DNA from: a virus
Taxonomy: Duplodnaviria; Heunggongvirae; Uroviricota; Caudoviricetes
DNA length: 64,000 nucleotides
Virus record (IMG/VR): IMGVR_UViG_2718218100_000001
Reading direction: 5' to 3' (one strand)
Shown here piece after piece: positions 21,001-24,000 of this stretch. Position 1 is the first letter of the stretch. Every line of letters starts with the position of its first letter. The position numbers were made by a program.

Positions 21001-24000
21001 ATATAGGCTTTATAAAAACATCCTGACTGATTATATACCTGATGATATTGATCGTTCAGAACTCTCATAAGATGGAGAACAGTTTCTGCACTCTCATTCT
21101 CTTTTGGTATAATTTCATGAATGATGCTGTCCAGTTGATATTTTTGCTTGCATGTTAGGATTTTTGTAATTCTTTCATCGATTTCAATGCATATTGAATT
21201 ATTTTTATCGGATAATAACAAATCATTTTCCTGTGTATTTGTTTGTATCTCTTGTGGGATATTAATTACCACATCCGTACATGTTCTATCCACCTCATTT
21301 GTCTTTATGTTGTCAAGAAAATCATTTAACGTCAGTTGAGAACCCAATTCATTAATGTAGTCCAATGATGACGTAGAAGAGCTATTATCAAGAAAATCGT
21401 TCAGAGTGAGCTCGGAGTCGTTTCTTGTTATCGGATATACATTTGTGGAAGCGGCTAATTTAATACTCCGGTTGCTGGAGGTAGAAGCTGTTGGTTCAGA
21501 GGTTGACGAACACTGCATGTCAATGCATACATAACCTTTATTTGAAGTTGAATTTGGAATCAAGTTTCCTCCTGAATTAATGGTTTTTCATAATACTAAC
21601 TATTGATAAAAATATTTTGCATTTCATTAAAATAAAAAATCCCATGGAAAATATTTTTTGTTAGTTATTACATACAGCACATCAGGTCGTCAATATAGTC
21701 TAACTATAGTTATCACCAAAAACTTGCCTCGATTTTAGATTTTTCCAGTATTTGTAGATATTGCACTGAACACCGAATACGTAGCAGAGGGTGTCTACAC
21801 GATAACGTTCTATGAGCTACCATGTTGTCGAAAAATTGTTTAGTGAGTATGACATCAGGAATGTGGTGGTCTGTTTTAATATTTCTATTTCTATTTCTAT
21901 TTCTATTTCTATTTCTATTTCTATTTCTATTTCTATTTCTATTTCTGTTTGTTGTGGTTTTTTCTTTAGTTCATGTATTTCGATTTGTTTCTGAATTATC
22001 GGGGGTAGTGTCTTCCCTTTTCCCTGAGGCTTATCATGCAGTTATTTTCGCCATCTTGGTATTGTGGAAATACCGACATCCATAGCTTTGGTGAGCTCTG
22101 TTCAGGTGGCCAAATTCAGAAAACCATTACGGAGGAAGAAGGCGATGGCTAAACCAGCGCGAAGACGATGTAACCGTAAAAGAGAAGATTTAACTGTTAA
22201 AAGGATATTTGAGTTACTAAGTTTCGATAAATCTACCGGGGTATTTAGATGGAAAGTTCCCACTCAGGGAAGGATAGCATTAAATAGTGTTGCTGGAGCT
22301 TTTGATTCCAACGGTTATTCAATGATCATGATAGATGGGCGTAGATATAAAACTCACGTCTTAGTTTTTTACATAACTCATAATCGTTGGCCTGCTGGTC
22401 AAATTGACCACGTTAATGGAATTAGGACCGACAATAGGCCAGAAAATTTAAGAGAATGCCTGCCAATAGAAAATTCAAGAAATATAAGGATCCGAAAGAA
22501 TAGCAAATCAGGTTGCAGAGGGGTTACTTGGCACAAACGACAGAAAAAATGGAATGTTAGGCTAGGATTCCATGGCAAGAGTAAACACTTCGGATGCTTT
22601 GATGATCTGGAGTTAGCGGTACTAGTTGCTGAAGAAGCCCGAGATAAGTATTACGGTGATTTTTCCGGCAACGAAAGGAGCACTTATGCGAATCTATCGA
22701 AGGAAATGTAAATGTTGCAATGAATGGTTTATACCAAAATATCAAAATCAATATTGGTGTAATGAGATTTGTGGAACCAAGATAGCACTCGAACGACGAA
22801 GTAAAGAACGCGAAAAAGCGGAAAAGGCAGAAAAGGCAGCAGAGAAGAAACGACGACGAGAGGAGCAGAAACAGAAAGATAAACTGAAGATTCGAAAACT
22901 CGCCTTAAAGCCCCGCAGTTACTGGATTAAACAAGCCCAACAAGCCGTAAACGCCTTCATCAGAGAAAGAGACCGCGACTTACCATGTATCTCGTGCGGA
23001 ACGCTCACGTCTGCTCAGTGGGATGCCGGACATTACCGGACAACTGCTGCGACACCTCAACTCCGATTTGATGAACGCAATATTCACAAGCAATGCGTGG
23101 TGTGCAACCAGCACAAAAGCGGAAATCTCGTTCCGTATCGCGTCGAACTGATTAACCGCATCGGGCAGGAAGCAGTAGACGAAATCGAATCGAACCATAA
23201 CCGCCATCGCTGGACTGTCGAAGAATGCAGGGCGATCAAGGCGAAGTATCAGCAGAAACTTAAAGACCTGCGAAACAGCAGAAGTGAGGCCGCATGACGT
23301 TCACAGTAAAAACCATTCCTGACATGCTCGTTGAGGCATATGAAAATCAGACCGAGGTAGCCAGAATACTGAACTGTAGTCGCAACACGGTCAGAAAATA
23401 CACTGGCGATAAAGAAGGAAAAAGACACGCTATTGTCAACGGTGTTCTTATGGTTCATCGCGGATGGGGTAAAGATACTGATGCGTGATATCCGGCAGGT
23501 TCTTGAGTGCTGGGGGGCATGGGCGGCAAATAACCATGAGGATGTGACCTGGTCACCCATTGCCGCCGGATTTAAGGGACTGATCCCCGAAAAAGTAAAA
23601 TCACGCCCGCAGTGCTGTGACGATGATGCGATGGTGATATGCGGGTGTATAGCCCGCCTTTACCGGAACAATCGCGATCTGCATGACTTGCTGGTTGATT
23701 ATTACGTGCTGGGGGGGACGTTCATGGCGCTGGCACGGAAACATGGGTGCTCTGACACCTGTATAGGTAAACGCCTTCACAAAGCGGAGGGGATTGTTGA
23801 AGGCATGCTGATGATGCTGGGAGTGAGGCTTGAGATGGATCGGTATGTTGAGCGTGAATTGCCGGGAGGGAGAACCTCTGTATTTTATCAGCGAAAAAAT
23901 AGTTTACGATCGTAAAAATCTGCATATCATGATAAGAGTGGTTACATTGCCACGCTGCTTAACCCGCCGATGCGCGGGTTTTTTTGTACCCAGAATCCTG

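Follow-up and report, generated by a model that had tools for sequence, protein, structure and literature searches.

Free-standing homing endonucleases of the T4 family, such as SegG, SegE and MobE, cut the allele that lacks their gene, and repair of the break copies the endonuclease gene together with adjacent sequence, a process called intronless homing; in phage Aeh1, mobE splits nrdA into two polypeptides. Other phage endonucleases join an HNN nuclease to an AP2 DNA-binding domain: they belong to group 2 of the His-Me finger superfamily (PMC5714182) and, according to the passage of PMC10448857 that cites Magnani et al. 2004, genes with this combination form a recognised family among homing endonuclease genes. 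Here we describe a gene of this second type that lies in the 5' end of ninG in a virus of the Caudoviricetes (IMG/VR record IMGVR_UViG_2718218100_000001), of which a stretch of 64,000 nucleotides (nt), hereafter the window, was analysed. The window is a Shiga-toxin-1 (Stx1) prophage, essentially identical to phage SH2026Stx1 (100% identity over 21500-23900). With a probability of roughly 60%, we read the locus as a free-standing HNN-AP2 homing endonuclease gene that has captured the translation start of ninG and brings along a substitute 5' end for this target; its cleavage and homing are predicted. A first-pass annotation of this DNA had described an HNH endonuclease gene with an AP2-like domain that invaded ninG and duplicated its start; the sequence features on which it was based were all confirmed in place.

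That annotation had suggested an alignment with lambda and with insert-free prophages, which was run and defined the breakpoints. Homology to lambda covers 22132-22173 and resumes at 22770, with clean joints at 22173/22174 and 22769/22770. The main parts of the locus, in which the copy of ninG present in the window is called ninG', are the following:

22132-22173, plus strand: lambda-type left arm, made of 13 nt of the ninF end, ninG codons 1-9 and 2 nt; now the translation start of the HNH open reading frame (ORF)
22145-22711, plus strand: HNH(HNN)-AP2 endonuclease ORF, 188 amino acids (aa); residues 1-9 from ninG, about 11-177 native enzyme, 178-188 read-on into the ninG' start region
22174-22769, plus strand: inserted cassette, 596 nt in place of 64 nt of lambda-type ninG (NC_001416, 42461-42524); HNH gene body plus foreign ninG 5' end
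22686-22769, plus strand: replacement 5' end of ninG, codons 1-28, 84 nt
22686-23297, plus strand: ninG', encoding a Rap-type recombination endonuclease, 203 aa, full length

With lambda and with insert-free E. coli prophages the left arm shares 95-98% identity, and homology stops exactly at 22173. As the earlier annotation had noticed, the HNH ORF opens with the N-terminus of NinG, MAKPARRRC: lambda ninG is matched without any difference over the first 29 nt (22145-22173), and the lambda ninF end over the 13 nt upstream. This 29-mer occurs once in the window, against a chance expectation of 0 matches. The same replacement was found in a lambda-like prophage of E. coli P393-F10, which is collinear with lambda over ninE, ninF, ninG, ninH, ninI and Q at 96-97% identity, and whose sole difference there is the exchange of 596 nt for 64 nt at the same breakpoints. 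When the comparison is made with the insert-free Stx1 phage AU5Stx1, homology resumes at 22783. Upstream of the cassette there are two unrelated contexts, either a normal ninF or AT-rich DNA next to which ninF is reduced to about 13 nt; across 60 loci the left junction is identical, except for one T-to-C single-nucleotide polymorphism (SNP) in one locus. Since this junction is shared by both contexts, the fusion of the HNH gene to ninG arose once.

Two smaller observations concern these loci. An imperfect tandem repeat of 20 nt (AGACGATGTAACCGTAAAAG / AGAAGATTTAACTGTTAAAAG, 80% match, Tandem Repeats Finder score 54) spans the left junction at 22163-22203, and may be a trace of the illegitimate joining of ninG codon 9 to the HNH gene, or a chance occurrence. 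The P393-F10 prophage (our locus L004) carries, just downstream of Q at 6898-7389, a second and different annotated HNH endonuclease gene.

The protein encoded by the HNH ORF contains two recognisable domains:

22346-22465, plus strand: HNH_3/His-Me finger catalytic core, residues 68-107, Pfam E 4e-11, above cut-off
22511-22657, plus strand: AP2-type DNA-binding domain, residues 123-171, three strands and a helix, Pfam E 2e-4, below cut-off

Both halves of the domain assignment proposed at first were thus recovered, an HNH endonuclease core and a C-terminal AP2 domain. The core has the beta-beta-alpha-metal architecture with the motif D-H ... N ... N, in which D88-H89, N101 (in NLRE) and N110 (in EN, just downstream of the HNH_3 span) are intact, and these columns are invariant in the alignment of relatives. 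In the same alignment, homologous enzymes start at about residue 11-16 and stop at about residue 177. An AlphaFold2 model gave a confidence (pLDDT) of 85 overall, with a mean of 60 in the block of residues 1-10 and values below 50 for residues 178-188. From the span of the relatives and the low model confidence at both ends, residues 1-9 are borrowed from ninG and the last eleven come from read-on. By its motifs and domain order the ORF encodes an I-HmuI-like HNH (HNN) nuclease with a C-terminal AP2 domain, whose cleavage activity is predicted. I-HmuI itself (PDB 1u3e), the HNH homing (nicking) endonuclease of the Bacillus phage SPO1, differs in that it is encoded by a group I intron and contacts DNA by NUMOD and helix-turn-helix elements rather than AP2; the identity between the two proteins is only 15-18%. 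GenBank and RefSeq already list our gene as 'HNH endonuclease'. No match was obtained in a search of the NCBIfam profiles, and tblastn for a second HNH paralogue in the window returned insignificant matches only (E >= 0.39). An anti-phage defence nuclease was considered as well and rejected, as PADLOC gave only a marginal match to the HNH motif of ZorE (E 0.008, 24 residues), with no partner genes nearby.

The HNN-AP2 family offers the closest comparison. Endonucleases with the same motif boxes are known from the Xanthomonas phages Xp10, OP1 and Xop411 (PMC2248197), and together with T5 heg and the 'IPA-HNH' of ICP1 they have the domain order of our ORF, an N-terminal HNN nuclease followed by a C-terminal AP2, and the boxes WP, DH, DNR, NLRE and EN in common with it. 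Further likenesses are a size of about 160-190 aa, AT-rich composition, a location outside introns and inteins, and variable presence among related phages. Identity to the family is 32-47%; outside the cluster of its own 99%-identical copies, the closest relatives (40-47%) belong, as free-standing endonuclease genes, to lytic phages of the Jersey-like, T5-like and T7-like types, and those at 40-45% bear annotations as free-standing homing endonucleases. The differences lie in the host and in the way of insertion: the cassette is found in temperate lambdoid and Stx prophages, whereas the family members reside in lytic phages; lacking a start of its own, it is joined to the nine opening codons of the gene that it interrupts; and it carries a replacement 5' end and occupies one fixed site, whereas the others are scattered across the genome. 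By its sequence, its fold, its free-standing position and its polymorphism, the gene is a well-defined member of the HNN-AP2 homing endonuclease family with an uncommon insertion architecture and a fairly ordinary mobile gene.

Of the contigs that hold the nearest of these relatives, one is T7-like and one is short and unannotated. The closest outside the cassette cluster (P0004, 44% identity), in a T7-like contig of a JGI metagenome (locus L151, 1033-1927), stands directly after the gene for T7 endonuclease I. This enzyme is a Holliday-junction resolvase, and NinG/Rap is also a junction-cleaving His-Me finger enzyme; that both genes have a neighbour of this type is probably a coincidence.

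Expression of the HNH gene appears to be tied to its surroundings. A Shine-Dalgarno sequence, GGAGG, precedes its start at 22131-22135, within the ninF end. Because there is no in-frame ATG, GTG or TTG between 22145 and the first structured helix, the protein depends on the ATG and the Shine-Dalgarno sequence of ninG; an in-frame GTG lies further upstream, at 22064. We found no promoter, terminator or regulatory hairpin belonging to the cassette, in which promoter-like sites are fewer than in shuffled sequences, so that it must be transcribed with the nin region. On the other side, ninG had been thought to resume from a new start overlapping the HNH stop, and this holds:

22675-22688, plus strand: new ninG' translation start inside the 3' end of the HNH ORF, with Shine-Dalgarno AAGGAG at 22675-22680 and ATG at 22686-22688

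The ATG follows five nt after AAGGAG and gives an overlap of 26 nt with the HNH ORF, which stops at TAA (22709-22711) in a different frame. No special RNA structure was detected in this overlap (fold z = -0.31).

An intron- or intein-borne endonuclease, or an HNH-NinG fusion protein that was mis-annotated, would likewise be inserted within a coding region and in frame with the first nine codons of ninG. Yet no Rfam model of a group I or group II intron matched 21000-24500 even at E <= 1, Pfam revealed no intein domains, and the termination of the HNH ORF out of the ninG' frame, together with the separate Shine-Dalgarno sequence and ATG of ninG', speaks against a fusion, so that we find this explanation hardly credible. 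The gene does not belong to the intron- or intein-encoded homing endonucleases and is free-standing in this sense; yet, borrowing the start of its host, it is not an independent translation unit. A comparable beginning has been described in the P22-like, lambdoid phage epsilon34, whose gene 31 encodes a putative HNH homing endonuclease that is joined in frame to the N-terminal end of eaE (PMC2629481). The likeness consists in the in-frame fusion of an HNH gene to the N-terminus of a resident gene; gene 31 differs in its location in the early left operon, in its HNH lineage, with relatives in Lactobacillus phages, and in that no re-started copy of the gene was described.

The product of ninG' matches the Pfam family NinG (PF05766) with E 3.6e-83 over profile positions 5-192 of 193 (188/193), that is, over its full length and including the Cys-rich N-terminal part. 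Since the cassette supplies a Shine-Dalgarno sequence, an ATG and 28 codons, NinG is still full length from 22686. These codons are of foreign origin. From 22686 to 22769 the identity to the 5' ends of lambda-type or Stx-type ninG is 55-60%, and downstream of 22770-22783 identity to ordinary ninG genes rises to 92-99%; the G+C content is 28.6% in the ninG' 5' end, 39% in the HNH body, about 50% in the rest of ninG and 51% in the 64 nt that were replaced. The N-terminus retains the Cys pattern C8/C11...C25/C29 and the EWF...WC...CG residues of lambda-type and Stx-type NinG, and because these are kept NinG' is probably still functional. Further down, an in-frame tandem duplication of 9 nt (GAAAAGGCA, 22821-22829) adds EKA to the Lys/Glu-rich linker of NinG; it occurs in 9 of 67 cassette-bearing loci, the window included.

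The claim that the insertion duplicated the start of ninG did not stand: the second 5' end is an AT-rich homologue of foreign origin, which shares with the first only an imperfect direct repeat.

22160-22173, plus strand: left copy of the imperfect 14-nt direct repeat, CGAAGACGATGTAA; ninG codons 6-10, lambda type
22698-22711, plus strand: right copy, CGAAGGAAATGTAA; ninG' codons 5-9, holding the HNH stop codon

The copies agree at 11/14 positions and are the only stretch common to both ninG starts; since the repeat pattern was written after viewing the sequence, the estimate of its chance occurrence is illustrative only. By inspection of the reading frame, a deletion between the two copies would restore an in-frame ninG, and could be mediated by the repeats themselves. 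On this is founded the idea that HNH-ninG' is the ancestral arrangement, from which insert-free ninG derived by loss of the HNH gene. Such a deletion, however, would leave the AT-rich 5' end, and neither the 5,426 E. coli genomes nor the phage collection nor the protein database yielded this end apart from the HNH gene. In fact, all of the complete E. coli genomes with the replacement 5' end (537/537) also hold the HNH gene, and in the phage collection this end occurs only alongside it, in SH2026Stx1 and AU6Stx1. One seeming exception, E. coli PK8241 (NZ_CP080139.1; locus L150, 1231-2444), has its HNH ORF uncoupled from ninG' by an IS3-family element that lies between them. Among 5.8 billion proteins, the ninG' N-terminus was found only in partial NinG fragments of E. 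coli and E. albertii, in an imperfect test, because the query held 14 out-of-frame residues and the search covers 90%-identity representatives only. The foreign base composition of the cassette and a diversity far below that of ninG also disagree with an ancestral state, as do the insert-free lambda-type 5' ends, conserved and widespread; the idea is already contradicted by the data, and we regard it as very improbable. The PK8241 insertion is the only case seen of an IS3 element at this position.

The cassette is frequent. It was found in 536-537 of 5,426 complete E. coli genomes (about 10%), including O157:H7, O111, O145, enterotoxigenic strains and animal isolates, and its arrangement recurs in 57 IMG/VR contigs. 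In the chromosome of Salmonella Infantis, a prophage carries it between ninF and ninG with 5 differences over 625 nt (22145-22769). The recurrence in E. coli, IMG/VR and Salmonella Infantis shows that the arrangement is not an assembly artefact. Copies of the cassette taken from E. coli, Salmonella, Stx phages and lambda-like prophages share about 99.6% identity. The empty lambda-type site is present in 833 E. coli genomes, as compared with 537 for the cassette, and both can be found in one chromosome: O157:H7 PV15-279 (NZ_AP018488.1) holds a 100%-identical empty lambda-type site and the cassette in different prophages (892290-892414 and 3587581-3587676).

To describe the signatures of mobility and selection, 58 cassette-bearing loci were compared with 81 insert-free loci; the latter are the best matches to the NinG of the window, and many samples are clonal relatives of O157:H7. 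In the cassette-bearing set, nucleotide diversity is 0.2-1.0% (about 0.4%) within the cassette against 2-6% in the adjoining ninG, in which pairs differ by up to 11% and the backgrounds stand 3-11% apart. When the 3' parts of ninG from both sets were clustered, a divergence level of 1% gave nine mixed clusters and a level of 2% gave five. Between cassette-bearing and insert-free loci, the fixation index (Fst) was 0.01-0.04 at common SNPs that lie 9 and 33 nt from the right edge of the cassette, and SNP variants just upstream of the ATG are also common to both types of allele. No long co-conversion tract was seen to the right of the cassette, the SNPs being unlinked already at 9 nt. The locus is thus a presence/absence polymorphism at one site, and the diversity of the element is far below that of its flanks. 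Repeated break-induced copying would produce such a picture, namely a uniform, young element whose backgrounds are old, diverse and shared and whose edges coincide with the exchange points. Moreover, the HNH ORF has 13 nonsynonymous and 11 synonymous segregating sites, with pN/pS 0.32 (binomial p = 0.006, deficit of replacements), which shows that it is under purifying selection. The catalytic motif is intact in almost all copies; a frameshift was found in 1 of the 58 full-length IMG/VR copies, and there are several singleton substitutions at conserved residues, e.g., P83T and N101S.

These data can be confronted with the possibility that the gene is a decayed or never-active passenger, which reached ninG by a single illegitimate event and was then spread by ordinary homologous recombination of the nin regions. 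Such regions are known to be mosaic (PMC2629481); the cassette coexists with an uncut, identical empty site in one O157:H7 chromosome; and the singletons at conserved residues, the frameshifted copy and the locus interrupted by IS3 would all suit a gene without function. Purifying selection and the nearly general integrity of the catalytic motif are not expected of such a passenger, and a neutral one should have dragged its flanks along, whereas here a cassette of low diversity sits on diverse, interleaved ninG backgrounds and linkage is gone within 9 nt. We therefore consider an inert passenger doubtful.

The homing reading is built on the anatomy, the fold, the distribution and the signatures of recombination and selection described above; for cleavage, the position of the target, immunity and biased inheritance, we infer the following course. 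The mobile unit would be the 596-nt cassette at 22174-22769, which lies in the first tenth of ninG and has neither promoter nor start codon of its own. It would share the transcript of the nin region, and its translation would begin at the Shine-Dalgarno sequence and ATG of ninG and pass through nine codons borrowed from that gene; its 3' end provides a new Shine-Dalgarno sequence, an ATG and the diverged, AT-rich codons 1-28 of ninG. During mixed infection, or on the encounter of a phage with a prophage, the enzyme would nick or cut an insert-free lambda-type ninG within or near the 64 nt that are replaced. The break would then be repaired from the cassette-bearing copy, with ninF and ninG codons 1-9 as left homology and ninG from 22770 as right homology, and the cassette would be copied in. 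The new allele would be immune to its own enzyme if, as we propose, the replaced stretch contained or adjoined the recognition site. The original claim that a free-standing homing endonuclease gene invaded the 5' end of ninG is thus upheld by the fold, the clean breakpoints, the interleaved backgrounds and the lack of an intron, its activity being predicted.

Several points weigh against this reading. The AP2 match does not reach the Pfam cut-off. The population statistics are rough, because the insert-free set was picked by similarity and the samples are partly clonal. The empty site that persists intact beside the cassette in O157:H7 chromosomes indicates that the enzyme is not converting it in lysogens; this could be expected if the nin region is repressed in lysogens, and equally if the enzyme is inactive. 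Given the mosaicism of lambdoid nin regions, ordinary homologous recombination could spread a passenger insert and give low linkage in the flanks. The donor lineage, either an AT-rich ninG or an HNH relative adjoining ninG, was not found in the phage, protein-database and one-genome-per-species searches: in phages, tblastn with the NinG' N-terminus gave at most 66% identity outside the cassette, and the scan of one genome per species returned a single, irrelevant match in Planctomycetota, the E. coli representative being evidently without the cassette. Finally, literature searches found no published work on this gene or its architecture, nor tests of cleavage or biased inheritance, and the genome announcement of SH2026Stx1 does not mention the HNH gene.

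The same anatomy would serve a nuclease acting as a weapon between phages, which cuts co-infecting or co-induced lambdoid phages with an unprotected ninG (marker exclusion) and copies its gene only as a by-product. Targets would be at hand, as O157 and other Shiga-toxin-producing E. coli are rich in lambdoid prophages with lambda-type ninG and 833 genomes have the empty site, and homing endonuclease genes have been described at boundaries of genetic exchange in phages (PMC10448857). However, PADLOC detected no defence-system signature, and exclusion and homing, which are not mutually exclusive, are not separated by the data; as a distinct explanation we judge the weapon improbable.

If the homing reading is followed, two further systems help to place it. 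Like the T4-family enzymes, the HNH gene lies between or within conserved genes, and the host gene can stay functional; those enzymes differ in belonging to GIY-YIG or other HNH groups and in having their own starts. In Aeh1 the host gene is split, whereas in ninG only nine codons were lost, and then replaced. The WHO elements of the yeasts Torulaspora and Lachancea home into FBA1 and replace the end of the gene at each integration, leaving the target functional and resistant (Coughlan et al. 2020, PMC7282813). In our locus, too, a substitute end was given to the target gene, here the 5' end of ninG, and a relic of the old end was left, the 29 nt at 22145-22173. WHO proteins are intein-derived and combine LAGLIDADG with a zinc finger, act in a eukaryotic host and replace a 3' end; their cleavage was demonstrated experimentally, whereas that of the cassette is predicted. 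The protein described here, HNH_3 plus AP2, is not homologous to the WHO/HO endonucleases and, because the nucleases are unrelated, the resemblance is one of mechanism and not of membership. We tentatively suggest, as a possibility that falls short of probable, that the cassette is a phage counterpart of the WHO elements, which overwrites the 5' end of its target with a cleavage-resistant substitute, takes over the old start codon and is still homing among E. coli and Salmonella prophages of the lambdoid and Stx types, for which lambda itself is a naive target, and so sets a recombination boundary at ninG just upstream of Q and stx.

The cassette leaves the understanding of homing endonucleases unchanged. 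If it is active, it would give a simple and tractable homing system in temperate lambdoid phages, while work on phage homing endonucleases has so far dealt mostly with lytic phages; cleavage assays and crosses are easy to set up, since lambda carries the empty site (NC_001416, 42461-42524) with identical flanks. It accounts for a mosaic joint that recurs at ninG and is present in about a tenth of the complete E. coli genomes, including O157:H7, and illustrates that a coding region can survive the entry of a selfish gene when the newcomer captures the start codon and replaces the end of the gene. For annotation it is a warning that the first nine residues of the 'HNH endonuclease' and the odd N-terminus of NinG are the two halves of one event.

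The neighbourhood of the HNH ORF comprises a gene for a dam methylase, a minus-strand ORF of 590 aa, the HNH ORF itself, ninG, ninH, Q and stx1AB, with ninG three genes upstream of stx. The 590-aa ORF (19791-21563) has 35% G+C and internal '...LTLNDFLDN...' repeats; PHROG 9230, of unknown function, is the sole group to which it was assigned, Pfam, NCBIfam and PADLOC searches gave no matches, and it looks like a moron of unknown role. With the AT-rich DNA of 19293-22131, it stands where AU5Stx1 has a ninE-ant-ninF-ant block. A 38-aa ORF at 22036-22152 ends in ...EEEGDG, which resembles the ...EEEDDG of NinF, and overlaps the HNH start as ninF overlaps ninG. The lambda-type ninF remnant amounts to only about 13 nt, so that the 42-nt stretch 22132-22173, with 52% G+C, has AT-rich DNA on either side. 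About 200 nt upstream of the HNH start, at 21880-21950, there is a (TATTTC)11.8 microsatellite, which is the locus 'TR1' (repeat AAATAG) used for typing O157 by multilocus analysis of variable-number tandem repeats (MLVA). One published primer matches exactly at 22023-22042 (minus strand); the other is not in the window and was found in O157:H7 86-24 (locus L148) and in three IMG/VR loci. Among the loci with the HNH cassette, the TR1 copy number ranges from 4 to 17.

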